Positions 7,322-40,286 of a stretch of DNA of 44,253 bases are shown in pieces (the first letter of the stretch is position 1; every line of letters begins with the position of its first letter). Source of the DNA: Bacteroidales bacterium (GTDB taxonomy: Bacteria; Bacteroidota; Bacteroidia; Bacteroidales; 4484-276). The stretch is from positions 1-44,253 of the forward strand of contig JAIOZV010000001.1 of NCBI GenBank assembly GCA_021740425.1, in the 5' to 3' direction. The position numbers and the translations under genes are program-made. The notes below the pieces were generated by a model. The model searched no databases. It saw only the letters and a list, made by a program, of their open reading frames with translations, and was not told the origin of the DNA.

Positions 7322-7357
7322 GAGTGATGGAGCATTGAAATTGCTCATTGGTTGATG

Positions 7358-10896: not shown

Positions 10897-10944
10897 TTTT
10901 TTTTGCAGAATCTCATGATCAAATGCAAGATTCATTTAAGCATA

Positions 10945-12003: not shown

Positions 12004-12007
12004 AATT

Positions 12008-16200: not shown

Positions 16201-16232
16201 AATCTGTTAGTAACTTTTTTTCAGATTTTACT

Positions 16233-16307
16233 TGTCCATTTCAAAAAACATTCATAAATTTGGACATTATTTGTCAAGATATTATTTTTCTATGCAAAAT
16301 TTGGACA
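16233..16307 (+). promoter_or_regulatory. Candidate operator/promoter region of the HTH-methyltransferase operon
   Basis: Inverted TGTCCA (16233-38) and TGGACA (16261-66). A perfect 11-bp direct repeat AAATTTGGACA at 16256-66 and 16297-16307, the second copy overlapping the start codon. A GTCAA half-site at 16273. Confidence 0.35.
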
Positions 16308-18591: not shown

Positions 18592-19753
18592 TCATATTGC
18601 ACCGGGATTGAGCAAATTGGAGTGGGAAATGGTGCAACACATTCCAGAAGGCGGAAATTGGCAAAATATTCCCGATACAATTCCCTCTCAACGTTTAGAG
18701 CAAATCAGACGTTCAGGCGGAAGAACGACTTATTACGGCAGACTTGAATATAACAAACCAAGCTACACTATTACAACGTATTTTAATCGTTTGGGCAATG
18801 GTTGTAATTTACACCCGAAGCAAAACCGCATAATTTCCACACGAGAAGGAGCAAGATTGCAATCTTTCAGAGATAGTTTTGTTTTTTATGGAAGTAAAAC
18901 ATCGCAATACAAACAAATCGGAAATGCTGTTCCGCCTTTATTGACAAGAGCTATTGCAGAAACATTGAAACCGCATTTGAAAAATCTAACTTTCCTTGAT
19001 TTGTTTGCAGGTGCAGGTGGTATGTCAGAAGGGTTTATTTCCGAAGGGTTTAAACTGATAGCTGCTAACGAAATTGAAAAAAACTATTTTGAAACGTACA
19101 AACAAAATCATTTAGAGTTTGATAATGGAGATAATTTAATTTTAGGAGATATTACTTTACCTGAAATAAAACAACAAATTGTTTCTGTTGCTTCCAAGCA
19201 AAAGAAAATCGGGGTTGTAATAGGAGGTCCACCTTGCCAAGGATTTTCAAATGCAGGTTGGCGAAATCCTAATGATAAACGCAATCAATTATTTAAAGAA
19301 TTTGTTCATATTGTTGATGAATTACAACCCGAAATATTTGTAATGGAAAACGTTCCTGGGATTCTAACTATGCGAAAAGGCGAAGCCATTAAAGAAATTA
19401 TTTCATCGTTTGAAGCAGTCGGCTACAATGTAAATGCTCCATTCAAATTAAATGCAGAAGATTTTGGCGTTCCACAAAAACGCAGAAGAGTTGTAATTGT
19501 CGGAACTCTGAAAAAAGAGAAAATCGATCAGCCGAAAAGCTTATTTTCATCAACCAATGAAAATTTAGCCAACCCGATAACCGTAAAACAAGCAATCGGA
19601 AGTTTACCCGAGTTAAAAACAGGTGAAGGCGAATTTGAAATGATTTGTAATTACAGACCTGTTTCGGCTTATGAAAAACTAATGTCAAGCGAAATTGATT
19701 TTACTGAATTTTATGAAAGTTGTTTGGAGAAATTACCAGTTGCTTTCGGCTAA
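18572..19753 (+). CDS. DNA cytosine-5 methyltransferase with circularly permuted motif order (TRD part-IX-X-I-IV-VI-VIII)
   Basis: The N-terminal part carries PEGGNW..YGRLEYNKPSYTITT, REGARLQSFRDSF (IX) and QIGNAVPPLL (X). These are followed by FLDLFAGAGGMSEGF (I), GGPPCQGFSNAG (IV), ENVPGIL (VI) and QKRRRVVIVG (VIII). ATG at 18572 (a TTG lies at 18566). The gene overlaps the upstream MTase gene. Confidence 0.88.
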   Translation: MSTKLYNHIAPGLSKLEWEMVQHIPEGGNWQNIPDTIPSQRLEQIRRSGGRTTYYGRLEYNKPSYTITTYFNRLGNGCNLHPKQNRIISTREGARLQSFRDSFVFYGSKTSQYKQIGNAVPPLLTRAIAETLKPHLKNLTFLDLFAGAGGMSEGFISEGFKLIAANEIEKNYFETYKQNHLEFDNGDNLILGDITLPEIKQQIVSVASKQKKIGVVIGGPPCQGFSNAGWRNPNDKRNQLFKEFVHIVDELQPEIFVMENVPGILTMRKGEAIKEIISSFEAVGYNVNAPFKLNAEDFGVPQKRRRVVIVGTLKKEKIDQPKSLFSSTNENLANPITVKQAIGSLPELKTGEGEFEMICNYRPVSAYEKLMSSEIDFTEFYESCLEKLPVAFG

Positions 19754-21148
19754 ATCAGCCAATTTTTGAAACACAAATTCAAGTTGGTTTTTTGCATCTT
19801 CGTTTTTCCTTGATTTCAGTAATTCAAACATTTTTTCAAGAGCTGTATCTACTTCTTTGTGGTTCCAAATTTTGTTTTTGCGGTTTTCTTTCTCTTTGTA
19901 TTCCTTTAATACATCAAACGAAATTCTATAATAACGTTTGATATTGTTTTGTTGATTTTTACCAGTTTTCTTGATTTGTTGAACCGATTTGTAAGTTCCT
20001 GTTGTCGGGTCAAAACCTTCAAATTTATAATCAAAGAAAGAATATTCGGGATTTAAAAACTGTTCCAAAAATTCGCCAAATCCTTTTTCTTCAATCATTG
20101 AAAAAATGATAAGAACGTGGTGTAAATTTTTCCGCATTAAGTCGCTCAATTTTACGGCTTCGATGACATTTGAAACTTTGTTTTTCAGTTTGTCCCAAAT
20201 AAATTTGGAGTGCCACGAAACAACTTGTTCGGTTTTTTCATCAGTCAGTAAAAGCTTAACATCACTCAAACTCATTCGGTTATTCTTCGCAGAATTTTCC
20301 GCTTTTGTAAGTGGGTGGAATTTTGGACGATGACAAAAAGCAAGTGAAATTGGTCCGATATGGTCGGCACTCAAATTCTGTTTACGAAACAACGACATTA
20401 AACGGTCTGCCATTTTCCAATCTCCGTCTGCCCAATTTTCGTAAACTCTTCGGTCTTGTCCGTATCGTTGCAAATTAGATTTGTGGCGACCTTTGTCGCT
20501 TTCGTGTCGGCAACAAGCACCATCAGAATGAAAACCGTCAAACCTATCAGGTGAATTACTCATTACTCCCGGAGAAAGCAAACCTTTTGCGTAGCAATCA
20601 ACAAAATATTTTTGCAAATACTCATTGAGATTTTGCATTGTAATTTTTTCGGACGTTCTTATTCTGAAAATACGTTTTACTTTTTCAATATCGTTCTCAG
20701 ACTTCACAAGTTCATTCATGATTTGAAAAATATCTTTTGAAAACGGAACAATCCTAACTCCAAATTCTTTTAAGAATGCGGTAACTGTTCTTTTGTTTGG
20801 ATAAATGTATTCAACACTCAATTCTTTACCACAAATCTGACAAGTATGTTTCTTTGTCGGGTGTATTTTCGCTGCAATTTTTGCGTAAGCCCCAGCTTCT
20901 ATTTTTATTCCGTACTTTTTACATTGTTCGTCCCACCATTTTCTACGTTCCTGACCTTTATCGGACTTTCCAGTAACAACCCATTTTATTTTTCCGTCAT
21001 TACCTCGTTCATAAAACAATCCTTTATAATTGGGGTGTGCAACAATAAACTCCGTGTATTTGATAAAATTGAAGTTCCATTGCCGCTTATTATCAGCAGC
21101 TTCTTTTAATTCTTTCATTTTAAGATTATTCATTTTCAATTTACTCAT
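19733..21148 (-). CDS. Type II(S) restriction endonuclease with HNH-like active site; likely Alw26I/Eco31I/Esp3I-family
   Basis: 471 aa, convergent to the MTases. HNH-like segment LSADHIGPISLAFCH..LTKAENSAKNNR (aa 259-291, about 20279-20368). Cys clusters CQICGK and ACCRH. Its start overlaps the stop of the upstream C-protein gene. The family assignment rests on gene context plus memory, not on a search. Confidence 0.6.
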   Translation of the reverse strand: MSKLKMNNLKMKELKEAADNKRQWNFNFIKYTEFIVAHPNYKGLFYERGNDGKIKWVVTGKSDKGQERRKWWDEQCKKYGIKIEAGAYAKIAAKIHPTKKHTCQICGKELSVEYIYPNKRTVTAFLKEFGVRIVPFSKDIFQIMNELVKSENDIEKVKRIFRIRTSEKITMQNLNEYLQKYFVDCYAKGLLSPGVMSNSPDRFDGFHSDGACCRHESDKGRHKSNLQRYGQDRRVYENWADGDWKMADRLMSLFRKQNLSADHIGPISLAFCHRPKFHPLTKAENSAKNNRMSLSDVKLLLTDEKTEQVVSWHSKFIWDKLKNKVSNVIEAVKLSDLMRKNLHHVLIIFSMIEEKGFGEFLEQFLNPEYSFFDYKFEGFDPTTGTYKSVQQIKKTGKNQQNNIKRYYRISFDVLKEYKEKENRKNKIWNHKEVDTALEKMFELLKSRKNEDAKNQLEFVFQKLADLAESNW

Positions 21149-21811: not shown

Positions 21812-23071
21812 CTAACGAAATCCAAAAATAAAGGGCATTACAAATACCATAAAAACAGTCCATAAGGCATAAACCGGCAAGTAAGTTGCGATGGTCATCT
21901 CAACTTTTTGAATGTCCTGATTTTTAAAATTCACCTTGAACAAATCGAGCATGATCAAAACCAGATTACCAAAAATCAGCAGGTTTGAACCAAGCACCGC
22001 AATCCTGTTTGGGGTAAACCCATATTCGCCCAGCCTGTATAGAATCGCCGAAAGCGCTACCACATCAATAATCAGAGTGATCACCGACAAGGCAAAAAGT
22101 ATGGCTAAATTAAAAGCCTGTTTTTTATAAAAGGAAGTTTCGGAAACTGAAAACACGATGATCCCCATAACGCCCAAAAGCATTAAATTGAAAACGATTA
22201 AAAAATCCCTGTCATCGTAAGGATTTTTGCCTGTAAGTACAATACTCACAAGATAAACAACCAGGGTAAGCAAAACAAGGGGGCTGAAAATACTTGCTAT
22301 GATCGGGGCTATTTTATTGGCCACAACAGGTAAAAAACGAATGATGAAAGTGGCTACAATAGGCACAGAAACCAATCCGCTAAAAATAACATAATCAAGG
22401 TAAAATTTTTCGATATCCAGATCTATTGCCGAAAACAGGCCAAATGTTACACCGGTGAGCACTCCTCCGGCAATTAAAATAACCGCCATCAGCACCGCTA
22501 AATCGCCATTGTATTTAATATAATCAATGCGTTTCAATTTGTCTTTTGTATTGAAATCGATAAAAATCAGCCCATATAAACACCAGAGCATCAAGGGAAG
22601 ATGAAGGTAAGCAAGATTTACCGACTGCCTGTCATCGCCCGCAGGCAACAGATTGATAAACACTGCTGAAACAACAAATACCAAAACAGCCATCAACAAG
22701 TGGCCTGGTTTAATGGATTGCCTGGCAAAAAAAGCATAAACCGACAATCCAAAAAGCACAATCAGTCCGGCATTTCTTTGATAAAACATATAATCCTCAG
22801 ACACAAAACTAAAAAAGCGTGGAATTTCGATCAGTAAAGCCGCAACCAAACATGAAACAATCAAAAACAGAACATCCCTCATTTTAATTTTTGCCGCATC
22901 CTGATTGGAGATGCCAAATTCCAACCTTGTCTTCCAGAAATCAGCGATACTAAAATCTGAAATTTCAGGATAAACATCAAAGAAGGCTTTTTCGAAAGTC
23001 TTTTTATCGGTAGCGTACATTTTTTCGAGTTGCTCAAAATTTTCGAGATTTTCTTTAATTCTGTTTTTCAT
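21812..23071 (-). CDS. Polytopic inner-membrane protein of unknown function (about 10-12 TM helices after an ~80-aa soluble N-terminus)
   Basis: Long hydrophobic helices throughout, and no catalytic motif recognised. ATG at 23071 (MKNRIK); a TTG opens the ORF at 23095. A hairpin GGATTTC-TAAC-GAAATCC (21806-21823) spans the stop codon. Confidence 0.7.
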   Translation of the reverse strand: MKNRIKENLENFEQLEKMYATDKKTFEKAFFDVYPEISDFSIADFWKTRLEFGISNQDAAKIKMRDVLFLIVSCLVAALLIEIPRFFSFVSEDYMFYQRNAGLIVLFGLSVYAFFARQSIKPGHLLMAVLVFVVSAVFINLLPAGDDRQSVNLAYLHLPLMLWCLYGLIFIDFNTKDKLKRIDYIKYNGDLAVLMAVILIAGGVLTGVTFGLFSAIDLDIEKFYLDYVIFSGLVSVPIVATFIIRFLPVVANKIAPIIASIFSPLVLLTLVVYLVSIVLTGKNPYDDRDFLIVFNLMLLGVMGIIVFSVSETSFYKKQAFNLAILFALSVITLIIDVVALSAILYRLGEYGFTPNRIAVLGSNLLIFGNLVLIMLDLFKVNFKNQDIQKVEMTIATYLPVYALWTVFMVFVMPFIFGFR

Positions 23072-23342
23072 AATACTTGCAATTTCATTTCTCAAATTAT
23101 CACAATTAATAATATTCCTAAATTATATCCCAATGTAGCAGTTTGTTGATTTGGAAATTTCAGGATTTTAAAACGTGTGTTCAGGTTTTAGATTATCAAA
23201 ATGAAAATTTTATGGAAAAACATTTTGCAAAATGGCAGATTAAAGCAGGATTAAAAGGAATTTTAATTCATAAATGCATGCCGGCACTTTTTTAACAATA
23301 CAGGCCACAGGAATTTTTAGAGAATTATTGGGGTCAAAATCC

Positions 23343-27762: not shown

Positions 27763-28080
27763 ATGAAAAATACTGAATTGAATTTTATTGAAGACAAACA
27801 AGACCCGAAAGCTGTTTCGGTGGTCTTTAGAGGAAATCTTTCTGTTGAAAACGCAAACGAATTCAGAGATCACCTGCTTGGAAAAATTGATTCGTTCGAA
27901 ATTTTCAATTTTGAAATCAACCATGTCGAAACAATCGACCTGTCATTTTATCAGCTTTTGCTGGCAACAAAAAAGTCCATCGAAGCAAAGAACAAGCAAT
28001 TCAATTTGATGATGATGCTTGCGCAGGAAAAGCTGGATCTATTGACACAGGCCGGTTTCGATACTGATTTACAACAATAA
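27763..28080 (+). CDS. STAS-domain protein (anti-sigma-factor-antagonist-like), first gene of the che cluster
   Basis: 105 aa. It has the pattern of a beta-strand start, NANEFRDHLL helix, HVETIDLSFYQLLLA (the SpoIIAA-like DxS..L motif with a candidate phospho-Ser) and a C-terminal helix. Confidence 0.7.
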   Translation: MKNTELNFIEDKQDPKAVSVVFRGNLSVENANEFRDHLLGKIDSFEIFNFEINHVETIDLSFYQLLLATKKSIEAKNKQFNLMMMLAQEKLDLLTQAGFDTDLQQ

Positions 28081-28093
28081 AACAATATAACCT

Positions 28094-28465
28094 ATGGATA
28101 AAACAAAAACAATTCTTGTTGTGGACGATTCGGAACCCATCAGGCAAGCTGTTTCGTATATGCTGCGTAGCAAAGGCATAAATGTGCTGCAGGGCGAAGA
28201 CGGAAATGATGCCCTCAGGCATTTCAACGGCACACCCATTCACCTTTTGATTACAGACTTACACATGCCAAATATGGACGGTATCGGCCTGATTAAAGAA
28301 GTGCGCAAAATGGAAGATTACAGCAGGATACCCATACTGGTATTGACCACCGAATCGCAGGTGTCGATGAAAATGGAGGCCAGGCAGGCCGGGGCAACGG
28401 GCTGGATTGTGAAGCCTTTTGAATCAGAAAAATTAATAGCCATCATCAGGAAGGTATTAAGGTAA
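28094..28465 (+). CDS. cheY: CheY-like single-domain response regulator
   Basis: ILVVDDSEPIR, ITDLHMPNMDG, LVLTTES and IVKPF carry all conserved REC residues. Confidence 0.9.
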   Translation: MDKTKTILVVDDSEPIRQAVSYMLRSKGINVLQGEDGNDALRHFNGTPIHLLITDLHMPNMDGIGLIKEVRKMEDYSRIPILVLTTESQVSMKMEARQAGATGWIVKPFESEKLIAIIRKVLR

Positions 28466-28496
28466 GATATTGAACAAACAGCAAAATACAGCCACT

Positions 28497-30704
28497 ATGA
28501 ACGAATCAGATGCGCAGTTTGCTTTAGAAATGCAGGAACTCAGAGAGAAGTTTGCAATTGAGGCAATCGAAAAAATTGCAGACCTCGAAACGGCCATACT
28601 TGTCCTCGAAAACAACCCAAATGATAAAGAAAAAATAAACTCACTTTTTGGTGCCATGCATAGCCTGAAAGGAAGCGGCGGAATGTTTGGCTACAATAAA
28701 ATCAGCGAATTTACCCACGACCTCGAAACCATTTACGATTACGTTAGAAAAGACAGAATTAAAATAAATACTGAGCTGCTCGATATTTCGCTTGAGGCCA
28801 TCGACCACCTGAAATTTTTACTCAGAATGGGCGACACCCTCGACACACAATCAGAAACAAAGCATCAGTCGAAAACTGCCAAGGTAAAGGAATGGGCTGG
28901 CAAAAAACTTGCAGATGCCCAAATTGAACATCCAATAGCCGAACCTGTTCACAAGTCAGAAGAACCCAATACGAACCAACTTTCAACCTCCACCTACTTC
29001 ATCTCATTTAAACCCCACGAAAACATTTTCGACAACGGGACCAAAGCCCTGTATCTCATCGATGAATTGTTTGCTCTCGGCGAAGCTTTTGCCATTCCTC
29101 ATTTCGAAAACATCCCTGCACTCGAAAAAATCAACCCCCAGCTTTGCTACACATGGTGGGAAATATTTCTTGCCACCGATGAAAGTCAGGGAACAATTGC
29201 CGATGTTTTTATTTTTGTTGAAGATGAATCAAAAATATACATCCATAAAATAGCTGACGACAATCTTTTGGAGTACGATGCATTTGCCCACTACCTCAAA
29301 CAATTGCGTGAAGCCAATGAATTGGCCGACCTCAAAGATTTAAAGAAAATTATTGATGCACTGCCTGTGAAGGAAATTCCTGCTATCCCTGAAATTGCTG
29401 CCACAGTGAAAATTGAACATGATTTAACAGAGGATGAAATCATAATTACTCCAACAACCGAACCCACGGTTTCGGGAAACATACAGGCCGAAGCCGGTAA
29501 AATGAAATTGCCTGCCACTGCAGCCGAAACAACAATTGCAAGCATCAGGGTTTCGTCCGAAAAAATTGACATACTGATGAATCTGGTGAGCGAAATGGTT
29601 ACCATTCAGGCCCGGTTGTGGATGTACGCAGAAAAGAAAAACGATCTGGAGTTGATTGCCATTTCAGAAAATGTTCAAAAACTCTCCAAACAACTTCGCG
29701 ACAATGCCTTCAGCATTTCCCTGATTCCGATCAGCAGCATTCTCACAAGATTTCAACGCCTGGTGCGCGATCTGTCGGCAACGCTTGGTAAAAAAGTAAA
29801 ATTTGTGATCGAAGGGCAGGGAACCGAACTCGACAAAACCATCATCGAGCGCATCACCGACCCCCTGCTCCACATCATACGCAACAGCCTCGATCATGGC
29901 ATTGAATCGCCGGAACTTCGAAAACAAATTGGCAAACCCGAAGAGGGAACCATTCTTTTCCGTGCTTATTACTCAGGCAGCAACATCCACATCGAAGTAA
30001 AAGATGATGGCGCAGGGATTGATAAAAACAGAATATTGAAAAAAGCCATCCAAAACAAACTCATCAACGAAGATGATAAATTGTCGGAAGCTCAGATTTT
30101 GAATCTGATTTTTGCTCCCGGTTTTTCAACAGCGGTGCAGGTTTCTGATGTTTCGGGAAGGGGTGTGGGAATGGACGTGGTAAACAAAAAAATATCAGAA
30201 ATCAGGGGCGAAGTGGTGATCAGGTCAGAGCTTGGTAAAGGCACGTCCATCACCATCATCCTCCCGTTAACGCTTTCAATTATCGATGGGATGCAGGTAA
30301 TGATCGGGAAAACCTGCTACATTATTCCCACATCGGCCGTACATAAAATTTATTCGATCAAACATATTCAGATTCAGAAAGCTTTCGACAATGTAATCGT
30401 TATCGATGGAAGGCAAATCCCCTATATTTATTTGCGCGAGCAATTCAACGATCACCAGGCCATCCCTGAAAAACAGGAAGTGCTGGTGGTAAAATACGAA
30501 AACCGTGAGGTAGGGCTGATCATCGACAAAGTAATCGGCGAATTTCAAACTGTGCTCAAACCCCTCGGACAGCATTACAAAAATCAGGAGTTTGTTTCGG
30601 GAGGAACCATTCTTGGCGATGGGTCGGTGGCATTGGTTCTCGATACCAACAAAATAATTTCCAGATTCTCAAAAGAAAACAAAAGCAAGGAGGAAAATAT
30701 ATGA
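28497..30704 (+). CDS. cheA: Chemotaxis histidine kinase CheA (Hpt-linker-dimerisation-HATPase-CheW-like)
   Basis: Hpt AMHSLKGSGGMFG, dimerisation IRVSSEKIDILMNLVSEMV, HATPase HIIRNSLDHGIE..DDGAGID..GRGVGMDVV, and a C-terminal CheW-like domain. An alternative TTG start lies at 28470. Confidence 0.92.
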   Translation: MNESDAQFALEMQELREKFAIEAIEKIADLETAILVLENNPNDKEKINSLFGAMHSLKGSGGMFGYNKISEFTHDLETIYDYVRKDRIKINTELLDISLEAIDHLKFLLRMGDTLDTQSETKHQSKTAKVKEWAGKKLADAQIEHPIAEPVHKSEEPNTNQLSTSTYFISFKPHENIFDNGTKALYLIDELFALGEAFAIPHFENIPALEKINPQLCYTWWEIFLATDESQGTIADVFIFVEDESKIYIHKIADDNLLEYDAFAHYLKQLREANELADLKDLKKIIDALPVKEIPAIPEIAATVKIEHDLTEDEIIITPTTEPTVSGNIQAEAGKMKLPATAAETTIASIRVSSEKIDILMNLVSEMVTIQARLWMYAEKKNDLELIAISENVQKLSKQLRDNAFSISLIPISSILTRFQRLVRDLSATLGKKVKFVIEGQGTELDKTIIERITDPLLHIIRNSLDHGIESPELRKQIGKPEEGTILFRAYYSGSNIHIEVKDDGAGIDKNRILKKAIQNKLINEDDKLSEAQILNLIFAPGFSTAVQVSDVSGRGVGMDVVNKKISEIRGEVVIRSELGKGTSITIILPLTLSIIDGMQVMIGKTCYIIPTSAVHKIYSIKHIQIQKAFDNVIVIDGRQIPYIYLREQFNDHQAIPEKQEVLVVKYENREVGLIIDKVIGEFQTVLKPLGQHYKNQEFVSGGTILGDGSVALVLDTNKIISRFSKENKSKEENI

Positions 30705-31231
30705 ACGAAAACGATGAAAATCAAATCAACCATTACCTGACTTTTAAATTGGGCGATGAAACGTTTGCATCTCATGTAAATAATATCCTGAAAATACTTG
30801 AAATGCAAAAAATCACGGAAGTGCCCAAATCTCCCGAATTTATGAAAGGAGTGATCAACCTGCGGGGTAATGTACTTCCAATTATTGATGCACGGCTGAA
30901 ATTCGGCATCAAACCCATGCCATATACCGACAAAACCTGCATTCTGGTGCTTTCGATAATCATCGAAAAAGAAAGCGTTGAAGTAGGAGCTATTGTGGAT
31001 GCCGTGATGGATGTTATCGAATTTCAAAGAGACAACATCAAACCTTCGCCCAGCCTGGGAAGTAAATACAAATCCGATTTTATTGACGGGGTGATGAAAA
31101 TAGATGATAAATTCATCATGGTGCTCAATATGGATTCTGTTTTTTCGACAAATGAAATCATCGATTTGAAAGACACCGCTAACATCCCTGAAAACAAAAA
31201 TGGCTTACAAAACAACGACATTGAAAATTAA
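30701..31231 (+). CDS. cheW: Chemotaxis coupling protein CheW
   Basis: 176 aa. [30 protein letters not shown] is typical of CheW. It has a 4-nt overlap with cheA. Confidence 0.9.
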
Positions 31232-31251
31232 TGCTATCGGAGGGAAAAACA

Positions 31252-33279
31252 ATGAATTGGAAAAATCTTAAAATAAAGACAAAGCTTGGAATTGGATTTG
31301 GCATCATCATTTTGATTTTGGTAATGATAGGCACACTATCCATTTTGGAATTAAAAAATATAGAGTCGAACATCCATACCATTGCAGATCATAACCTTCC
31401 TGAATTACAAATTTCAAATCACCTCGAAAGTAATGCCCTGCAAATAATAAATCATCTGGATGTATTTTCGTTGAACTTTGAGAAACAGGAAATGAGCGAT
31501 GCCCTGACATATCTTAAAGACCTGGAAAACTATTTGGAAAATGTTACAGAAAGTAACCTGACTTTGGGCGATGCAATGAGAGGTAACATTGCTAACGCAA
31601 AAAAAACTTTGCGCGAACATAAGACCTTAATGGACGACATCAGCAACCTCACCAAACTTATGATCAACAACAGAGGAATAATGGATGAGGCTGCAGGAAG
31701 TTTTATGGACAACTGTTACGATTACCTGAAAGGTCAGGAATCCTCTCTGGCCTACGAGATAGATGCCCGCACGGCCAAAAGAAACACACTTGAAAAAGTT
31801 ACGCTCATCAACAATGTGATTGATATTGGCAATATCATCCGAATTGAAAACTTTAAAGCACAGGCACTGCTCAACTACTCCGGCGACATAGATATTAACA
31901 GGCAATTTTCGGCAATTGATCAGTACCTCACAAACCTTGAATCCATCGACAATAGCGGAGAAGATATTTTATACCTGAGCAACATCAGGAGATCTGCCGA
32001 AATCTATAATCAGGCGGTTGAAGAATTTGGAAATAACAGTGCAGTACTGAAAATGAATAATCAGCAAATAAATGAAAGTACCGGGCGAATGATTGCCTCA
32101 TTTCACAGCCTTGCCGAACAAAGCAATAAAAATGCTGCCGCATTTGCCTTACAATCCATACAAGACATGCAGTATTCGCGCAGTATTCTTATCATCGGAC
32201 TTTTAATTTCCATTCTTGGAAGCATCATGCTGGGCTGGCAAATTTCCAAATCAATTACCAGACCCATTAAAAAAGGTGTTGCTTTCGCAAAAGAAATAGC
32301 CGAAGGAAACCTTGAAACAAGTATCGAAATTGATCAGAATGATGAAATTGGCGAACTGGCCGCTATGCTTACCCTGATGAAAAACAAACTTCACAAAACC
32401 ATTTCATCCATTCAAGCGGCTGCCCAACACATTGCAGAAGCAAGTTCACAGATGAGTCAAACCTCTCAAAGTATTTCGCAAGGCAGCACAGAACAGGCAT
32501 CGGCTGCTGAAGAAATATCTGCTTCCATCGAGGAAATGTCGGCGGCAATAGCCCAAAATACTTCCAATGCACAGCGTACCGAAGAAATTGCCCGTCAGGC
32601 CTCTTCTCAAATGAATACAGGAAGCAAAAATGTGATTGATGTAACTTCGGCCATTAAAGAGATAGCTGAAAAAATTACCATCATTGGCGACATCGCCTAC
32701 CAAACCAATATTCTCTCGCTGAATGCCGCGGTGGAGGCCGCCCGCGCCGGAGAGTACGGAAAAGGATTTGCTGTTGTGGCCGATGAAGTAAAAAAACTTG
32801 CCGAAAGAAGTCAGGACGCTGCCACCGAAATTGATAAAGTATCTGGTAACGGTGTAAGTTTAGCCGAAGAATCCAGACATCTTTTCAATGCCATTGTACC
32901 ACAAATCGAGCTAACACTCAAGCTTGTGCAGGAAATCACCGCCTCGAGCCTTGAACAAAACTCAGGAGCTGAACAGGTAAACGACTCCATACAACAGTTC
33001 AATAATGTGATTCAGCAAAACGCTGCTGCCGCCGAAGAAATGGCTACCAATGCCGAAGAACTGGCCAACCAGGCCGAATATCTCACCGAAATGACCAGCT
33101 ATTTTCAAACCGGTGAAAAATCAGGGATAACACGTGCTAAAAAATACGAGCAGAAAAAATACAAAAAAGCCGAATTGCCAGCAGCAAATAAATCGCTTCA
33201 AATAAAAAGCAACATGCGCAAAGGTGTTAACCTGAGGCTCGGAGGCGATATACTCGATCAGGAATTCGAAAAATTTTAA
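31252..33279 (+). CDS. Methyl-accepting chemotaxis protein (TM-helical periplasmic sensor-TM-HAMP-signalling domain)
   Basis: TM1 [16 protein letters not shown], a ~290-aa helical ectodomain, TM2 [22 protein letters not shown], and the hairpin tip [40 protein letters not shown]. An alternative ATG at 31231 overlaps the cheW stop. Confidence 0.9.
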
Positions 33280-33357
33280 AATAAAGCTTCCGCTTCGTTC
33301 TGTAATATTGGCGGAAGGATCAATCAAAACAAAGGTCACAAATATTAACTGATAAAA

Positions 33358-34218
33358 GTGCCGGTAAATACGCTTCATAAAATTTATAGTGCTGAATTGT
33401 CGGAAAAAGACTTTGCCCGACTCAGCGAATTTATTTTTCGGGAATACGGTATTAAACTACCTCAGCACAAAAAGTTGATGCTCCAGGGAAGACTGCGGAC
33501 ACGTTTAAAAGAAAGACAACTCACTTCCTTCGACAAGTATATCGACTTTTTGTTCAGCAACGAAGGGCAGCAGATCGAACTCATTCACATGATCGATGTT
33601 GTAACTACAAACAAAACTGATTTCTTCCGCGAACCCGATCATTTCGATTTTCTTTTCACCAAAGTTCTCGAGGAGTTTAAAAGAAAATCCTTTGCGGGAA
33701 AACCTTTCAGCATTTGGAGTGCAGGATGTTCAAGCGGCGAAGAACCTTACACCATGGCCATAATTTTAAACGAATTTAAAGCGCTGAATCCGGGATTTAA
33801 TTTCAACATTCTGGCAACCGACCTTTCGTCGAGAGCACTGGAACATGCACAAACTGCCGTTTATCCCGAAAACAAGGTTGATGTAATACCGCTAAGCCTC
33901 AAGAAAAATTATTTACTCAAAAGCAAAGATCAGACTAAGAAGGAAGTAAGGATTGTAGCATCATTAAGAAACAATGTAACCTTCGAAAGGCAAAACCTGA
34001 TGCAACTTGATAAATATGACAAATTTGGCTTCGACTCAATTTTTTGCAGAAACACACTGATATATTTCGACAGGCCAACTCAAATAAAAGTTGTTACAGG
34101 ATTGGTAAATAAGCTCAATAACAGTGGCTATTTATTCATAGGGCATTCCGAATCGCTGCTCAACGAAAACACTTTACCCATCGAAAGAATTGCCCCTACA
34201 ATTTACAGGAAAAAATAA
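33358..34218 (+). CDS. cheR: Chemotaxis protein methyltransferase CheR
   Basis: TTNKTDFFREPDHF and SAGCSSGEEPYTMAI (SAM site). GTG start. Confidence 0.9.
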   Translation: MPVNTLHKIYSAELSEKDFARLSEFIFREYGIKLPQHKKLMLQGRLRTRLKERQLTSFDKYIDFLFSNEGQQIELIHMIDVVTTNKTDFFREPDHFDFLFTKVLEEFKRKSFAGKPFSIWSAGCSSGEEPYTMAIILNEFKALNPGFNFNILATDLSSRALEHAQTAVYPENKVDVIPLSLKKNYLLKSKDQTKKEVRIVASLRNNVTFERQNLMQLDKYDKFGFDSIFCRNTLIYFDRPTQIKVVTGLVNKLNNSGYLFIGHSESLLNENTLPIERIAPTIYRKK

Positions 34219-34230
34219 TTTGAAACAATT

Positions 34231-35787
34231 ATGGACAAAAAACCCGTAAAGCTGATAATAGTTGACGACAACGAGCTAAACTTAGAGCGCTTAAGGTTAT
34301 TGCTCAACGATCAGGATTATGACCTCACCACCATTAACGATGGCCGGCAGGCTTTGAAGCTTGCATCAAAAGAGTATTTCGACCTGATGCTCCTCGATGT
34401 AATTATGCCGGGCATGGATGGTTTTGAAGTGTGCTCAAAAATGAAAAAAAATTCTAAAACAGCACAAATCCCGGTCATTTTCCTAACCGGACAAACTGAT
34501 CCCAACAGCATACAAAAAGGATTTCAGGCCGGAGCTGTGGATTATGTAGCAAAACCATTCAACAAAACTGAACTTTTAGCCAGAGTAAAAAGTCATCTTG
34601 AATTAAAACAATCGCGCGAAGAACTTGAAATTGCAAAACAGGCTGCCGAAGATGCCCTAAAATACAAAAGCGAATTTTTGGCTAATATGAGTCACGAAAT
34701 CAGAACTCCCATCAATGGCATCATCGGAATGTCGGAATTTCTGGAAAACACAAAATTGGATCAAAAACAGGCCGAATATGTAAGGATTGTAAGATCATCG
34801 GCCAATTCGCTGCTCAATCTGATTAACGACATCCTGGATTTCTCAAAACTTGAAGCAGGTAAAATTGAACTCGAAAAACTTGATTTCGACCTCTATGAAC
34901 ACATCCAGGATACCGTAAAATCGATGATTTTTAAAGCTGATGAAAAAGGCCTGCAATTAAATTATGTCATTGCCTCGGATGTACCGCGAGCACTTAGTGG
35001 TGACCCTACAAGGCTAAGGCAGGTTTTACTCAACTTAATTTCAAATGCCCTTAAGTTTACCGAAAAAGGAGGTGTAACGGTAAAAACAACTCTTCTTGAA
35101 AAACGGGACAAGGAATCCATTGTAAAATTTGAGGTCATCGACACCGGTATCGGCATCAATGAAGAAGGCATGCAAAGGCTGTTCAAATCATTTTCGCAGG
35201 TTGATGCTTCCACAACCCGAAACTATGGTGGAACAGGGCTGGGTCTGGTAATTTCCAAAAGTCTGTCGGAAATGATGGGTGGTAGAATCAGTGTGGAAAG
35301 CCGGCTAAATGTGGGGTCAAATTTCTGGTTCACCGTTAAAATGGGGAACTCTGACATAAAACAAGTCGAAAGAATGAGTATTGTTGAAACCGAAACCGAA
35401 GACCATTCCATGAAAAAATTAAACATCCTGCTTGCCGAAGACAACCTGGTAAATCAAAAAGTAGCAAGCCTGCATCTCGAAAAACTTGGGCATACCGTTA
35501 AGCTTGCCAACAACGGCATATCCGCTTTTGAGGCCTATAAATCCGGTGACTTCGACCTGATATTTATGGATGTTCAAATGCCCGAAGCCGATGGCTACGA
35601 AGCCACAGGGCTTATCAGAAACCACGAAAAACAAAACAACATCGCACAGCGAATCCCGATTATTGCCATGACTGCAAACGCCATGAAAGGTGATAAGGAA
35701 AAATGCATCAATGCAGGAATGGATGACTACATTTCAAAGCCATTTACAGCCAAAGCACTCAAAGAAACATTAAGCAAATACGCCTAA
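34231..35787 (+). CDS. Hybrid histidine kinase: REC-coiled coil-HisKA-HATPase-REC
   Basis: REC1 IVDDNE..LLDVIMPGMDG..VAKPF. H-box KSEFLANMSHEIRTPINGI. N/G boxes NLISNALKFT, DTGIGI and GTGLGLVISK. REC2 LAEDN..FMDVQMPEADG..ISKPF. No TM and no Hpt domain. Confidence 0.9.
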   Translation: MDKKPVKLIIVDDNELNLERLRLLLNDQDYDLTTINDGRQALKLASKEYFDLMLLDVIMPGMDGFEVCSKMKKNSKTAQIPVIFLTGQTDPNSIQKGFQAGAVDYVAKPFNKTELLARVKSHLELKQSREELEIAKQAAEDALKYKSEFLANMSHEIRTPINGIIGMSEFLENTKLDQKQAEYVRIVRSSANSLLNLINDILDFSKLEAGKIELEKLDFDLYEHIQDTVKSMIFKADEKGLQLNYVIASDVPRALSGDPTRLRQVLLNLISNALKFTEKGGVTVKTTLLEKRDKESIVKFEVIDTGIGINEEGMQRLFKSFSQVDASTTRNYGGTGLGLVISKSLSEMMGGRISVESRLNVGSNFWFTVKMGNSDIKQVERMSIVETETEDHSMKKLNILLAEDNLVNQKVASLHLEKLGHTVKLANNGISAFEAYKSGDFDLIFMDVQMPEADGYEATGLIRNHEKQNNIAQRIPIIAMTANAMKGDKEKCINAGMDDYISKPFTAKALKETLSKYA

Positions 35788-35793
35788 GCAATT

Positions 35794-36690
35794 ATGAAAC
35801 CGTTATCAGATGAACAATTACTGTCAGAGTTAAAAAAGCGATTTGAAGAAAACCGTCAATCATACCAAAAATTGGAGGAACTAAACAATGAACTTTCAAA
35901 AGCCAACAAAAAGCTTATCGAATCGGAACAACTTAAATCAAATTTCCTTTCGAACGCCCGCAATGAAATCATCAATCCGCTGTCATCCATTTTAAGCCTT
36001 GCTCAGGCCATCGCCTTTTCGGAAAGTGATGATGCCGAACAAACAAAATCATTGGCAACCATTATTTACAACGAAGCATTTGATCTTAATTTTCAGATGA
36101 ATAATATTTTCGCATCAGCCGAGATAGAAGCCGGAGAAGCAATCTGCGAAAACTACACCATTGATTTGATTGATCTTATCGAAAAAATAATCGATAAATT
36201 CAAAACTTTTGCACTTGATAAAGGCCACAATCTTATTTTTCACAACACAATAAATAATAGCCATTGCTATATGAAAAGCGACCCGGCTAAAATTCAGATA
36301 ATCATCAGCAACCTTATTGTCAATGCAGTTAATTGGTCGGGAAATACCGAAATAGTTGAAATAAGCCTCAAAGAAGATGACTCAAAAAAAATAATCAGTG
36401 TTTCAGACAACGGACCGGGCATTGCCGAAGGTGACCAAAAAATTATTTTCGACAGGTTTAAATCGCTCGATCCCGCTGTTCACACAAAAAATAAAGGCCA
36501 CGGGCTTGGGCTTTCGATAGCCAGGGCACATGCTGAGCTGCTTGGTGGCGAAATTACAATTGAAAGTCAGCCCGGCCATGGCAGCACCTTCAGCCTGATA
36601 CTACCTAATTCTACCACTAATGAAGAAACTATGGGATTTTCGGAAAGCGGCCAGGATTTTATCTTTGACAACGACACAGAACTATTCTAA
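35794..36690 (+). CDS. Soluble HisKA/HATPase kinase paralogue lacking the phospho-acceptor histidine (H to N)
   Basis: The H-box-equivalent KSNFLSNARNEIINPLSSI has Asn57 (AAT at 35962-35964) where the neighbouring kinase has His. The N box NLIVNAVNWS, G1 SDNGPGI and G2 GHGLGLSIA look intact. N-terminal coiled coil only. Confidence 0.85.
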   Translation: MKPLSDEQLLSELKKRFEENRQSYQKLEELNNELSKANKKLIESEQLKSNFLSNARNEIINPLSSILSLAQAIAFSESDDAEQTKSLATIIYNEAFDLNFQMNNIFASAEIEAGEAICENYTIDLIDLIEKIIDKFKTFALDKGHNLIFHNTINNSHCYMKSDPAKIQIIISNLIVNAVNWSGNTEIVEISLKEDDSKKIISVSDNGPGIAEGDQKIIFDRFKSLDPAVHTKNKGHGLGLSIARAHAELLGGEITIESQPGHGSTFSLILPNSTTNEETMGFSESGQDFIFDNDTELF

Positions 36691-36696
36691 AACGGG

Positions 36697-37152
36697 ATGG
36701 AAGTAATCAACACCACATATATTTATTCATCGGGTTTAATTGTTTCATCTAAACCGCTTATTTTAAGCACGGTGCTGGGTTCGTGTATTTCGATCTGTTT
36801 ATGGGACATGAAAAACAAAATTGGGGGCATGAATCATTATATGCTGCCCTATTGGAATGGTTCAGGCCTGGCTTCCCCAAAATACGGTAACATTGCCATT
36901 CCTCAATTGTTAAAAAAAATGAAAGCCACACAACACGATCCTGGTAACATAATCGCAAAAGTTTTTGGAGGAGCCAGGATGCTGAAAGACCAGTCAGCAA
37001 TTTTTGACATTGGTCATAGAAATACTCAACTGGCTTACGAGATGTTAGCGGCTGAAAGCATAAAAATCATAGCAGAAAGTACGGGGGGTGAAAAGGGCAG
37101 AAAAATTTTTTTTAACACCGAAACAGGTGAGGTCTATCTGAAATTTCTCTAA
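36697..37152 (+). CDS. cheD: Chemoreceptor glutamine deamidase CheD
   Basis: VLGSCISICLWD (catalytic Cys), GGMNHYMLP, DIGHRN and TGGEKGRKIFF. Confidence 0.88.
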   Translation: MEVINTTYIYSSGLIVSSKPLILSTVLGSCISICLWDMKNKIGGMNHYMLPYWNGSGLASPKYGNIAIPQLLKKMKATQHDPGNIIAKVFGGARMLKDQSAIFDIGHRNTQLAYEMLAAESIKIIAESTGGEKGRKIFFNTETGEVYLKFL

Positions 37153-37173
37153 AAAATGAACAACGTATAATCA

Positions 37174-38244
37174 ATGGATATGAATAAAATTCGTGTATTA
37201 ATCGTAGATGATTCTGCTGTGGTAAGACAATCACTTGCAGGAATCCTTGAATCATCGGGAATAATCGAGGTCATGGGCACTGCCGCCGACCCATTCATTG
37301 CTGCAAAAAAAATCAGCAAGGAAGTTCCTGATGTAATTACACTTGATGTGGATATGCCTCGGATGGATGGGCTCACTTTCCTGAAACGAATTATGTCGCA
37401 GCACCCAATACCTGTTGTAATGATCTCCAGCCTGACCCACGAAGGATCCATCGAAGCACTCAAGGCCATGGATTATGGAGCCATCGAAATTATCTCAAAA
37501 CCAAACCTGGTAACGCGCGATTTCTTCGAAGAGGCCAGAATACAAATCATTGATGCGGTAAAAGCTGCCGCCATGTCGAAACTTACAAGACGAAAAATTA
37601 ATCCCGCTGCTATTTCGGTGCCTGAGAAACATAGTGCTGATGCGATTATTCCTACAAATTATCAGAAAAGCATTTCACCCCATACCGACAGAATTATTGC
37701 AGTTGGAGCCTCAACAGGTGGCACCGAAGCCATCAAAACCTTTCTTGAAGGCCTCCCCGAAAACAGCCCCGGAGTTGTGATTGTGCAACACATGCCCGAA
37801 ATTTTTACAAAAGCCTATGCAAACCGCCTCAACGGAATACTACCCCACGACATCAAAGAAGCTGAAAATGGAGATATTGTTACCAGAGGAAGGGTACTCA
37901 TCGCCCCCGGAAATCAGCACATGCTGCTCAAAAGACGTGGCAAAGAATACAGTGTGGAAGTTAAGGGAGGGCCGCTTGTAAATCGCCACAGGCCATCGGT
38001 CGATGTTCTTTTTCGTTCGGTTGCAAGAGCCGCAGGAAACAATGCAATAGGTGTTCTGCTTACCGGCATGGGCGACGACGGAGCAGCCGGATTGCTGGAA
38101 ATGAAAGAAACCAAAGCAAAAACCATTGTTCAGGACGAGGCAACATGCGTTGTGTTTGGCATGCCCAAGGAAGCTATAAAATTAGGAGCTGCCGACCATA
38201 TTTTACCCATACACATGATTGCCCGTGAAATCGGAAATTATTAG
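37174..38244 (+). CDS. cheB: Chemotaxis response regulator protein-glutamate methylesterase CheB
   Basis: [25 protein letters not shown]. Esterase triad context [14 protein letters not shown] and TGMGDDGA. Confidence 0.92.
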
Positions 38245-38318
38245 ACCTGGATTTTGTGCCCGGGTCTGGTAAACCATTCATCAGATAAAGTGTTTACTTA
38301 CCATACGATTTTACATAA

Positions 38319-40286
38319 ATGAGCAAAGCATATATTTTCTTTCTATTGGTTTTATTCCCCTCTCAATTTGTGGCAGCACAAAATGAATTTGATCACCTCG
38401 ACAGTTTATTGACTCGCGCACAAGTGAAGCCTGATGACACAGCCCTGCTCAGGATAATCTCTCATGAAACCATCAACATTCCTGACACTCAACAGGACAC
38501 AGCATATTATTACGCTTCTGAACTTTACCGTTTGGCCGACAAGATAAATTACAGGTACGGAATCGCCGTAGCACTCAATTTTCAGGGCCGATTGCTCGAA
38601 CAACAGGATTTTAAACGATCTATCGAAAAATATGAGCAAAGCCTTGCCATTTCACAACTTGAAGGTTTTAAAAAACTCCAGTCGAAAACCCTGAATAATC
38701 TGAGTATTGTTTGTGCATTTATGGGCGAATACAACAAATCGATAGATTACCTCCTGCAGTTGCTCAAGCTGGCCGAAAGCATGAACGATAATATGCGAAA
38801 AGCTGTAGCGCTCAATAATATCGGGTTAAGATACCATGACATGGGCAACCCTGAATTGGCTTTGGGATATTACGATAAAGCCATGACGCTGAACCTTAAA
38901 ACCGGAGATTTGGATCGCTATGCTACAAACCTTTCCAATATCAGTAACGCCTACCAGGTATTATGGATCAATAATCCCGAAGCCGAATATTACTATGATT
39001 CAGCTCTTTTCTTTCAAATCAATGCCATAAAACTTCAACGAAAAAATGGAGACAACTACAAATTGCAATATGCATTTCAATCACTGGTTCATCTTTATTA
39101 TAATAAAGGCCTGAATGATAAGGCATGGATGGCGCTTGATTCAGCCATTTATTTTGCAAATCTTGCCGACGACAGCTATGGAATTATCAACCTGATGAGT
39201 GCTAAAGCTGATCTTCTTAATGATGAAGACCGCTTTACAGAGGCCGGCGAAATACTCAAAAATGCAATTGGCATGGCAAAGGAATTAAATTTCAGGAGCC
39301 TGCTTGTTGACCTCTACGAGGAAATGAGCGAAAGCTATCATGGCCGGAAAAACTATTTGAAAGCCTACGAGTACAACGAAAAATTTAAACAGTTGGAAGA
39401 TTCGCTGCAGAATATTGAAAAAAGTAAGGCCTTTGCCAAAATAAATAAATACGAAAAAGAAAAAGAACAACATCAACGGGAGATACAGGAACAAAAAATT
39501 GAAAATCAAAGACTGATTCGTAACTCGGTGATAATTGTCGGGGGATTGATCTTTTTGATGCTGCTTGGCCTTTGGCAAAGGTACAGATTCATACGGCGAA
39601 CAAAAGATGAACTGGAAGACAAAAACCGCATTATTGAAGTTGAAAAGGGGAAATCTGATAAGCTGCTATTAAATATTTTACCCGAAGAAACTGCCGGTGA
39701 GTTGAAGGCTTTTGGGAAATCCAAAGCCAAGTTGTTTGAAATGGTAACTGTTATGTTTGCTGATTTTAAAGGATTCACCATGATGGCCGAAAAAATGTCG
39801 CCCCAGGAATTGGTTGACGAAATTGATTTCTATTACCAAAAATTCGATGAAATTATCACCAACAACAACATCGAAAAAATCAAAACCATAGGTGATGCCT
39901 ATATGTGTGCAGGAGGCCTTCCGACGGCCAACACCACCAATCCCGAAGATGTGGTGATGGCTGCCTGCCAAATCAGGGATTTCATGCAAAAACAAAAACA
40001 GATAAAACTATCAGAGGGAAAACCATTTTTTGAAGCCCGTATCGGAATTCACACAGGACCAGTGGTTGCAGGCATTGTAGGCTCACGCAAATTTGCCTAC
40101 GACATCTGGGGCGACACTGTAAACATTGCCTCGCGAATGGAATCGAGCGGGGAAGTCGGGAAAATAAATGTATCAGAATTTACCTGCGCATATATCAAAG
40201 AAAAATTTATTACTACCCCGCGCGGAAAAATTAACACAAAAAACAAGGGCATGATGGAAATGTACTTTGTTGAATGCACGAAATGA
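38319..40286 (+). CDS. Signal peptide-TPR repeats-TM-class III adenylate cyclase
   Basis: Signal peptide MSKAYIFFLLVLFPSQFVAAQ, a ~370-aa TPR ectodomain, a coiled coil, and TM VIIVGGLIFLMLLGLW. The cyclase domain has FADFKGFT and KTIGDAYM (metal-binding Asp residues plus the specificity Lys), RIGIHTGPVVAGIVG and YDIWGDTVNIASRME (specificity Asp, Asn and Arg). Confidence 0.88.
   Translation: MSKAYIFFLLVLFPSQFVAAQNEFDHLDSLLTRAQVKPDDTALLRIISHETINIPDTQQDTAYYYASELYRLADKINYRYGIAVALNFQGRLLEQQDFKRSIEKYEQSLAISQLEGFKKLQSKTLNNLSIVCAFMGEYNKSIDYLLQLLKLAESMNDNMRKAVALNNIGLRYHDMGNPELALGYYDKAMTLNLKTGDLDRYATNLSNISNAYQVLWINNPEAEYYYDSALFFQINAIKLQRKNGDNYKLQYAFQSLVHLYYNKGLNDKAWMALDSAIYFANLADDSYGIINLMSAKADLLNDEDRFTEAGEILKNAIGMAKELNFRSLLVDLYEEMSESYHGRKNYLKAYEYNEKFKQLEDSLQNIEKSKAFAKINKYEKEKEQHQREIQEQKIENQRLIRNSVIIVGGLIFLMLLGLWQRYRFIRRTKDELEDKNRIIEVEKGKSDKLLLNILPEETAGELKAFGKSKAKLFEMVTVMFADFKGFTMMAEKMSPQELVDEIDFYYQKFDEIITNNNIEKIKTIGDAYMCAGGLPTANTTNPEDVVMAACQIRDFMQKQKQIKLSEGKPFFEARIGIHTGPVVAGIVGSRKFAYDIWGDTVNIASRMESSGEVGKINVSEFTCAYIKEKFITTPRGKINTKNKGMMEMYFVECTK

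Follow-up and report, generated by a model that had tools for sequence, protein, structure and literature searches.

Within a 44,253-bp stretch of DNA (the window), which is one entire contig of a metagenome-assembled genome (MAG) labelled Bacteroidales bacterium, 11 consecutive plus-strand open reading frames (ORFs) at positions 27763–40286 encode a chemosensory (Che) system. One of them specifies a HisKA-type protein with asparagine at the phospho-acceptor histidine position, hereafter the His-less protein, which comparison with related loci revealed to be a core, lineage-specific Che component of Bacteroidota tied to CheD. The system as a whole appears from its receptor and its CheA to be F8-like, within the F7/F8 lineage of chemosensory pathways, with a backbone that is already known. 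The best overall explanation, to which we give a probability of about one half, is an F8-like array whose signal would be switched off by the His-less protein as a phosphatase coupled to CheD, and whose readout would be non-flagellar. A sequence-only reading of the window had described the eleven genes with their domains and junctions, full CheA/W/Y and CheR/B/D cores, one receptor and four receiver (REC) domains; ORF calling reproduced its coordinates and Pfam bore out the composition (Table 1). Pfam scans of all major ORFs in the window likewise agreed with it in detecting no fli/flg/mot, cheZ, cheC or cheX domains.

A kinase-like protein without the catalytic histidine is linked to cheD

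The His-less protein carries Asn57 at the phospho-acceptor position, its H-box reading FLSNARNEIINP compared with FLANMSHEIRTP in the hybrid kinase of the same operon, which confirmed the missing histidine noted in the sequence-only reading. That reading had also called the protein a paralogue of the hybrid kinase, and a close relationship of this kind was not supported, because the two share 25% identity and the His-less protein belongs to a separate conserved family. The family consists of soluble proteins of ~298 residues, so far from Bacteroidota contigs. All 119 listed members of full length have asparagine in place of histidine (one more listed sequence is N-terminally truncated), within a motif N-E-I-[IV]-N-P, N-E-I-I-N-P in the window, that places Glu58 at position H+1 and Asn61, invariant in the alignment, at H+4. 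The ATP-binding N, G1, F and G2 boxes are invariant as well (N173/N177, D205-G207-G209, F219/F222 and G235-G239). All 120 listed members end in phenylalanine, mostly as E-[ILVT]-F and in the window as E-L-F, after an acidic-aromatic stretch. An AlphaFold2 model (predicted local distance difference test score, pLDDT, 77.7) consists of a long coiled coil running into DHp helix 1, DHp helix 2 and a GHKL domain, with disorder in the ATP lid and over the C-terminal ~19 residues. The best PDB sequence matches were ordinary HisKA kinases (HK853 and others), with DivL and RetS also among the matches. The name given to the family by the Prokaryotic Genome Annotation Pipeline (PGAP), 'HAMP domain-containing histidine kinase', hides its nature, and in the literature searched we found no description of a His-less kinase in che clusters, nor of 34H/F8 systems (34H, the 34-heptad receptor class) in Bacteroidetes.

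The gene context of the family was assessed in contigs encoding homologues of the His-less protein, together with 80 further metagenome loci and 80 CheA-anchored genome loci. Among the 80 further metagenome loci, cheD lies immediately 3′ of the His-less gene in 63 of the 64 that were assessable, at a median gap of ~9 nucleotides (nt), and cheR lies 5′ of it in 44 of 53. Where clusters are split, the His-less gene remains with cheR-cheD-cheB, not with STAS-cheY-cheA; Bacteroidota clusters without the His-less gene (L011 and a plasmid of Chondrinema litorale) also have no cheD. The two kinases embedded in the operon, which the sequence-only reading had treated as equivalents, are of different standing: the His-less protein is a Bacteroidota-wide core component encoded beside cheD, and the hybrid kinase is an addition of one subclade. 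A general role of the His-less protein as a partner of the hybrid kinase was ruled out, since the hybrid kinase is absent from most loci that encode the His-less protein.

Two unusual arrangements of the pair were seen. In L152 (~7000–10900), within an otherwise standard cluster, the His-less–cheD pair is tandemly duplicated, giving cheR-HK-cheD-HK-cheD-cheB (HK, the His-less gene). In L145 (9980–13567), and also in L146, no further che gene lies within 10 kb of the pair, which is followed by HDOD and GGDEF genes, a context that hints at a link of the pair to cyclic di-GMP signalling. We also compared the C-terminal tail of the His-less protein with known peptides. The idea that it copies the receptor pentapeptide was dropped, the aromatic residue at position 2 being absent, and its likeness to the C-terminal peptide of CheZ is one of general character only.

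A candidate phosphatase with a proposed coupling to CheD

In the HisKA proteins CrdS and HK853, the Thr or Asn at H+4 is needed for phosphatase activity only, and a His-to-Ala change keeps most of that activity (PMC3510030). Since the His-less protein retains Glu at H+1 and Asn at H+4, this chemistry favours a dedicated phosphatase of phosphorylated receivers. Probably unable to autophosphorylate, the protein would act on CheY~P or CheB~P via Glu58/Asn61 (an ExxN motif) and so switch the signal off. It may in addition be functionally coupled to CheD, with the flexible C-terminal tail as a docking peptide. A precedent for such coupling is CheC of Bacillus subtilis and Thermotoga maritima, an ExxN phosphatase that regulates CheD and is regulated by it. 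The His-less protein resembles CheC in having E-x-x-N and in being encoded beside cheD, and in these respects only: it gave no CheC match in Pfam, has no homology to CheC, CheX or FliY, and its fold is DHp plus GHKL ATPase in place of the CheC type with its D/S-x3-E-x2-N-x22-P motifs.

DivL and RetS also combine a HisKA-type fold with a catalytic histidine that is dispensable or replaced, by Tyr in DivL; the His-less protein differs in having Asn at this position and in being small, soluble and encoded in a che operon. A DivL-like pseudokinase would bind CheY~P through its DHp domain as an allosteric output adaptor, not a terminator, and would address the hybrid kinase or the cyclase here and GAF-PAS or GGDEF/HDOD proteins elsewhere. 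Such a role would suit the loss of the catalytic histidine from a strongly conserved DHp surface, the presence of DivL among the PDB matches, and the conserved tail, which could dock a partner. It would also suit the genes that follow cheB or the His-less–cheD pair, which vary by lineage and encode signalling enzymes (cyclase, GAF-PAS, HDOD plus GGDEF). However, the tightest genomic partner is cheD and not an output enzyme, no single output partner co-occurs across the family, and the Asn at H+4, which is specific to phosphatase activity, is invariant. We consider an adaptor role rather unlikely and favour the phosphatase.

The receptor and CheA suggest an F8-like class

The chemosensory class was judged by receptor class, gene order, the CheR insertion and a neighbour-joining (NJ) tree of CheA; the class-specific hidden Markov models of MiST lie outside Pfam and NCBIfam (PMC6943060). 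Relative to Escherichia coli Tar, a receptor of the 36-heptad (36H) class, the window receptor has one 7-residue (heptad) deletion in each arm of its hairpin, and because the deletion is symmetric we assigned the receptor to the 34H class. Two hydrophobic segments flank its 4HB domain, and its C-terminus reads EFEKF. The same helix measure cleanly split the cluster receptors of the 80 CheA-anchored genome loci. In the F7 clade (enterics, Halomonas, beta- and gammaproteobacteria) the receptors are 36H and their tail is xWxEF, and the assessable Bacteroidota cluster receptors are 34H and end in [DE][FY]E[KR]F. This second combination recurs in a multi-phylum group (Nitrospirota, Desulfobulbaceae, other 'delta' lineages, Ignavibacteria and Magnetococcales) and in a group of Oleispira, Sulfuriferula and Limnobacter. 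In alignment, the β-subdomain of the window CheR is as long as that of E. coli CheR, at a place where pentapeptide-independent CheRs have a gap of 3–4 residues.

In the NJ tree, the Bacteroidota CheA sequences formed a clade with a bootstrap value of 90, adjoining a multi-phylum 34H clade (79), and the F7 clade (86) was separate; the Bacteroidota and multi-phylum clades were united in 68% of replicates. The multi-phylum clade includes CheA of the 34H cluster on pAB510a of Azospirillum sp. B510, a genome for which exactly one F8 pathway has been reported, and this cluster served as an F8 anchor identified by its 34H receptor alone. F8 pathways have 34H receptors with two transmembrane (TM) helices, and in the F8 cluster of Pseudomonas syringae a receptor pentapeptide occurs together with a 'GXX' insertion in CheR (PMC11253619, PMC7184735). 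The window system thus resembles the F8 class (P. syringae cluster II, Methylomicrobium alcaliphilum and, presumably, Azospirillum pAB510a) in its two-TM 34H receptor, its pentapeptide, the CheR β-subdomain insertion, a CheA without receiver, and, with moderate tree support, the grouping of CheA with the Azospirillum 34H clade. It differs in its separate Bacteroidota CheA clade, the His-less gene before cheD and a non-flagellated host phylum, and its own subclade adds the hybrid kinase and a TPR adenylate cyclase.

Gene order suggested a different class. The 'stage 1' F7 clusters of gammaproteobacteria, of unknown and non-flagellar function, are arranged STAS-cheY-cheA-cheW-MCP-cheR-cheD-cheB (PMC7184735), which is the window order apart from the two inserted kinase genes, and they share with the window the lack of cheZ. 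F7 as the exact class was nevertheless rejected on account of the 34H receptor and the position of CheA outside the F7 clade. Further differences from the stage-1 clusters, such as Vibrio cholerae cluster III and that of M. alcaliphilum (PMC7184735), concern the receptor (transmembrane with a 4HB domain, as against a cytoplasmic 36H Aer2 with PAS-HAMP), a single cheW instead of two, the absence of mcpA, of a second STAS gene and of a Ser phosphatase, and the extra kinases and cyclase. The statement of the sequence-only reading that the gene combination matched no characterised system could not be upheld, given that the backbone follows the stage-1 F7 order (PMC7184735) and that a 34H receptor with a pentapeptide is a hallmark of F8.

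The STAS protein is a positional equivalent of CheS

A STAS ORF lies directly 5′ of cheY in many related Bacteroidota loci and is common across F7 and F8-like loci, including those of alphaproteobacteria. In Sinorhizobium meliloti and Agrobacterium, the STAS protein CheS is reported to bind CheA and to speed the dephosphorylation of CheY1~P (PMC12654446). The window protein resembles CheS in being a small STAS-only protein encoded directly 5′ of cheY-cheA, although their sequence similarity is very low, and its own binding to CheA is putative. An assignment of the STAS protein as MlaB of the divergently oriented MlaE/MlaF genes was ruled out, since STAS-cheY-cheA is kept in loci without Mla genes. 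Leu follows the conserved Asp (I-D-L-S-F) in the window protein and most Bacteroidota homologues, where SpoIIAA/RsbV have a phosphorylatable Ser. Pfam scans of the window found neither SpoIIE/PP2C nor anti-sigma kinase domains. Because the STAS protein has no Ser after the Asp and the window no PP2C or anti-sigma kinase, the classical partner switching proposed in the sequence-only reading is unsupported, and we prefer a CheS-like role at CheA for this positional equivalent of CheS.

These observations bear on two further alternatives. In the first, the pathway would belong to the 'alternative cellular function' (ACF) class, with a phosphorelay as output combined with STAS partner switching and/or cyclic AMP (cAMP). 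It would suit a window without flagellar genes and an operon with extra kinases and a cyclase, and the F7 che1 cluster of Shewanella does hold a partner-switch pair, CrsR/CrsA (PMC9855816). However, ACF systems typically have a receiver-fused CheA and, as output, a response regulator that is enzymatic or binds DNA, and here CheA proved to lack a receiver and the sole stand-alone regulator to be a single-domain CheY, while the 34H receptor and the grouping of CheA with 34H/F8-type and not with receiver-fused CheAs point to the F7/F8 lineage. The STAS protein counts against this alternative twice, by the residue after its Asp in a window lacking PP2C and anti-sigma kinase, and by the wide occurrence of STAS genes 5′ of cheY in F7/F8 clusters, including the rhizobial CheS acting on CheA/CheY. 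The ACF assignment, made in the sequence-only reading, is thus improbable.

In the second, the His-less protein would be a GHKL Ser/Thr kinase of the RsbW/SpoIIAB type that phosphorylates the STAS protein in a Che-controlled partner switch. All its ATP-binding boxes are invariant, some family members also match HATPase_c_2, an anti-sigma kinase family, and a STAS gene is present in the operon. Yet the canonical Ser/Thr is absent from the STAS protein in most Bacteroidota clusters, the His-less gene parts from STAS and stays with cheR-cheD-cheB in split clusters, and a full DHp domain is present, which RsbW-type kinases lack, so that this role is very improbable beside that of a phosphatase.

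Gene order is inherited in one subclade and the core is widespread

The full 11-gene order, with hybrid kinase and cyclase, recurs in five independent contigs (L088, L089, L090, L092 and L093, the last two being metagenome loci), whose His-less proteins are 52–66% identical to that of the window. Because the order recurs, in some cases with different flanking genes, the operon is a real inherited unit of one Bacteroidales subclade. Outside this subclade the common order is STAS-CheY-CheA-CheW-(MCP)-CheR-[His-less protein]-CheD-CheB, without a hybrid kinase. This core containing the His-less protein was found in L002/3, L006, Agaribacillus aureus, Alkaliflexus imshenetskii DSM 15055, Ohtaekwangia, Salinivirgaceae and several Bacteroidales MAGs.

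Many related clusters carry additional genes. In L002/L003 (2314–5771 and 12573–14852), and likewise in L006 and L014, a receiver gene and a gene for a protein of 584–603 amino acids (aa) without a Pfam domain lie upstream, together with a divergent Crp-family cyclic nucleotide monophosphate (cNMP)-binding regulator and receiver; 3′ of cheB these loci encode a 759-aa GAF-PAS protein without a recognised output domain. L006 (GCA_046538755.1) is labelled Thiohalospira sp., but its CheA and its His-less protein cluster closely with Bacteroidota sequences (L014), and this gammaproteobacterial label is probably a binning error. The 121-kb plasmid NZ_CP111061.1 of the cultured Cytophagales bacterium Chondrinema litorale (L172) carries a 34H-type che cluster without the His-less gene and without cheD, and with a TPR sensor kinase upstream.

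The hybrid kinase and the cyclase are additions of particular lineages

The sequence-only reading had raised the question of whether the kinases and the cyclase travel with the che core. They do so in the five contigs with the full order, and the hybrid kinase, absent from the other Bacteroidota clusters, is a lineage-specific add-on. Kinases within che clusters have precedents (CheS3 and CrdS). In the ACF system Che3 of Rhodospirillum centenum (CheA3/CheS3/CheY3), which also encodes a receiver-containing HisKA kinase inside the cluster, CheA3 phosphorylates a receiver of CheS3 (PMC3868531). Che3 differs in that CheA3 is itself a receiver-bearing hybrid of another class, and in having no His-less protein, CheD pairing or cyclase. 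By analogy with phosphotransfer from CheA3 to the CheS3 receiver, the hybrid kinase would provide a second phosphoryl route in the subclade, probably from CheA to REC1; CheA-P1, being the sole Hpt domain that the operon encodes, could exchange phosphate with REC2 as well. In the literature searched there is no description of the Bacteroidota branch, of the cheD-linked His-less family, or of the combination, peculiar to the subclade, with hybrid kinase and TPR adenylate cyclase; the backbone is not new.

The cyclase gene lies 3′ of cheB in L004/5, L088–L090 and L092–L094. L004/5 and L094 form a second cyclase subclade, in which cheR-[His-less]-cheD-cheB-cyclase stands apart from cheA and the start of the cyclase gene overlaps the end of cheB. 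The cyclase belongs to a large Bacteroidota family of TPR cyclases, and its standing as an operon partner, suggested in the sequence-only reading, holds for the closest branch (at least 50% identity), which is che-linked, and not for the rest of the family, homologues at 42–47% identity occurring in unrelated contexts. The motifs F-A-D-F-K-G-F-T, K-T-I-G-D-A-Y-M and Y-D-I-W-G-D-T-V-N-I-A-S-R contain both metal-binding Asp residues, the Lys/Asp pair that specifies ATP and the Asn/Arg transition-state pair, and in the PDB the top matches are adenylate cyclases, with alignments that run through these motifs. By sequence, then, the protein is a bona fide class III adenylate cyclase. The cyclase gene probably shares a transcript with the operon, and is at any rate inherited with it, which makes it likely that cAMP acts as a signal in parallel or downstream. 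A divergent Crp-family cNMP-binding regulator is often present in related clusters that have no cyclase.

Proposed signalling and its readout

In the explanation that we favour, the 34H receptor, CheW and CheA would form a sensing array. The pentapeptide would tether CheR and perhaps CheB, CheD would deamidate the receptor, and CheR, CheB and CheD together would provide adaptation. Phosphate would pass from CheA-P1 to CheY, to CheB and to one or both receivers of the hybrid kinase, after the example of CheA3 and CheS3 in R. centenum, and the His-less protein would terminate the signal in concert with CheD. The readout would be non-flagellar, namely cAMP and physiology under phosphorelay control, and/or gliding.

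A non-flagellar output, as proposed in the sequence-only reading, is likely, because a complete Che system here stands in a lineage in which flagella are unusual and relatives with the same core include Alkaliflexus, described as a gliding bacterium. The 'F' of the class names, which denotes flagellar, carries less weight in this case, because flagella are unusual in Bacteroidetes, Alkaliflexus glides, and in P. syringae the F8 CheA1 is dispensable for chemotaxis and CheY1 is without a motility phenotype (PMC11253619). We also considered a true taxis pathway in which CheY~P steers gliding (through the type IX secretion system and Gld machinery), or flagella if the MAG has them, with the kinases and the cyclase as modulators. 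A complete set of excitation and adaptation proteins with a single-domain CheY, a nominally flagellar class and carriers that include gliders such as Alkaliflexus would all fit. On the other hand, the surroundings of the cluster contained no motility gene in the loci that were examined, the gliding machinery has no known CheY target, and the P. syringae phenotypes point the other way (PMC11253619). Taxis is a possible reading, but a doubtful one, and the non-flagellar readout set out above is preferred.

Several observations weigh against the explanation as a whole. The F8-like label is drawn from receptor class, gene order and a distance tree of moderate support (68% for the union of clades). 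Fully conserved ATP-binding boxes exceed what a pure phosphatase needs and would fit a kinase of another substrate or a nucleotide-dependent scaffold. Loss of the histidine is not always compatible with phosphatase function, as PleC H610A loses this activity (cited in PMC3510030). The coupling to CheD is drawn from gene adjacency, and the survey of flagellar and gliding genes covers one contig of this MAG. The cyclase, finally, has a periplasmic sensor of its own and may merely be co-expressed, its homologues at 42–47% identity not being linked to che genes.

Because the phylum lacks flagella and its model glider is not known to carry che genes, chemosensory systems of Bacteroidota have received little study. 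The data presented here describe a branch that is widespread in Bacteroidota and appears to belong to the F8-type lineage, itself poorly understood. This branch has recruited a conserved, unnamed, kinase-derived protein that is linked to cheD and is not a kinase in the usual sense, and one of its subclades probably connects its array to both a hybrid kinase and a cAMP synthase. More speculatively, the His-less protein and CheD might form an unrecognised termination and adaptation module, a kinase-derived family of Che phosphatases in the arrays of non-flagellated Bacteroidota with gliding and/or cAMP as output, a proposal that we advance only tentatively. If the model of a phosphatase coupled to CheD is true, it adds a new kind of Che phosphatase to CheZ, CheC/X/FliY and CheT and explains how feedback is closed in CheD-containing systems without CheC; if CheY~P steers gliding, chemotaxis of gliding Bacteroidota becomes open to experiment. 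Alkaliflexus imshenetskii DSM 15055 and Agaribacillus aureus both carry the core and are in culture, which makes the new component testable.

Operon layout and the rest of the window

The genes of the operon are given in Table 1. Their junctions range from a 4-nt overlap (cheA/cheW) to 78 nt (MCP/cheR), with 74 nt between cheB and the cyclase gene. Apart from the CheB subfamily, no component matched an NCBIfam equivalog above cut-off, and the system is not classifiable by these names. CheY is 56–64% identical among related Bacteroidota clusters. The start of CheA is ambiguous: the longest ORF begins at TTG 28470 (744 aa), and the NCBI record uses ATG 28497, nine codons later (735 aa). Between P1 and the dimerisation domain, residues ~175–255 of CheA (window 28990–29230) form a strongly conserved block, TYxIxFKP...NPLYLIDEL...CYTWWEIFLAT...VFIFVED. 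It had no Pfam match and could represent a divergent P2 or a docking domain, where STAS or CheY might bind.

Table 1. Protein-coding genes of the che operon in the 44,253-bp window
Product	Position	Strand	Evidence
STAS-domain protein, 105 aa; no phosphorylatable Ser after Asp (I-D-L-S-F)	27763..28080	+	Pfam STAS 4.1e-5, just above cut-off
CheY, single-domain receiver, 123 aa	28094..28465	+	Pfam Response_reg 3.6e-27
CheA: Hpt/P1, H-kinase_dim, HATPase_c, CheW-like P5; no receiver	28470..30704	+	Pfam; NCBIfam CheA 1.7e-122
CheW	30701..31231	+	Pfam CheW 1.5e-33
MCP: periplasmic 4HB_MCP, HAMP, MCPsignal; 34H; C-terminal EFEKF	31231..33279	+	Pfam; alignment to E. coli Tar
CheR methyltransferase with β-subdomain insertion (CheR_N + CheR)	33358..34218	+	Pfam CheR 4.5e-57; CheR alignment
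Hybrid kinase REC-HisKA-HATPase_c-REC, H-box intact (SHEIRTP)	34231..35787	+	Pfam
His-less HisKA/HATPase protein, 298 aa; weak HisKA and HATPase_c matches	35794..36690	+	Pfam; alignment; AlphaFold2 model; gene context
CheD receptor deamidase; active-site Cys and His present	36697..37152	+	Pfam CheD 2.2e-27
CheB methylesterase, REC + CheB_methylest	37174..38244	+	Pfam; NCBIfam CheB subfamily above cut-off
Signal peptide/anchor, periplasmic TPR, one TM helix, cytoplasmic class III adenylate cyclase	38319..40286	+	Pfam Guanylate_cyc 2.2e-52 and TPR

A promoter and terminator scan of the two longer gaps gave nothing above chance, with a method that does not model Bacteroidetes promoters. Two inverted repeats were seen, one at 33287–33317, 3′ of the MCP gene (CTTCCGC/GCGGAAG, 7 bp, 17-nt loop), and one at 38243–38267, overlapping the cheB stop codon (AGACCTGG/CCGGGTCT, 8 pairs including one G-U, 9-nt loop); because a T-run is absent, neither is a typical terminator.

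Pfam matches in the flanks indicate housekeeping genes, with CvpA, MlaF and MlaE upstream on the minus strand, and SppA, HPPK, a deoxynucleoside kinase and EF-G downstream. Elsewhere the window encodes metabolic functions, a Pst transporter and a NarL-type two-component pair, besides a low-GC restriction-modification island. On the minus strand at 11359–12955, a NarL/LuxR-type response regulator and a HisKA_3 kinase lie beside a PstSCAB-like phosphate transporter and an outer-membrane porin of the 'alginate export' family (7358–10935), and none of these genes appears to be related to the che operon. The low-GC island at 16232–21148 (0.32–0.36, compared with ~0.42) carries genes for an HTH protein, an Eco57I-type methylase, a C5 cytosine methylase and an Alw26I-type restriction endonuclease; it probably represents a type IIS restriction-modification system gained by horizontal transfer. 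Between this island and argS, an ORF of 427 aa (21812–23095, minus strand) has no Pfam match at E ≤ 1e-4.

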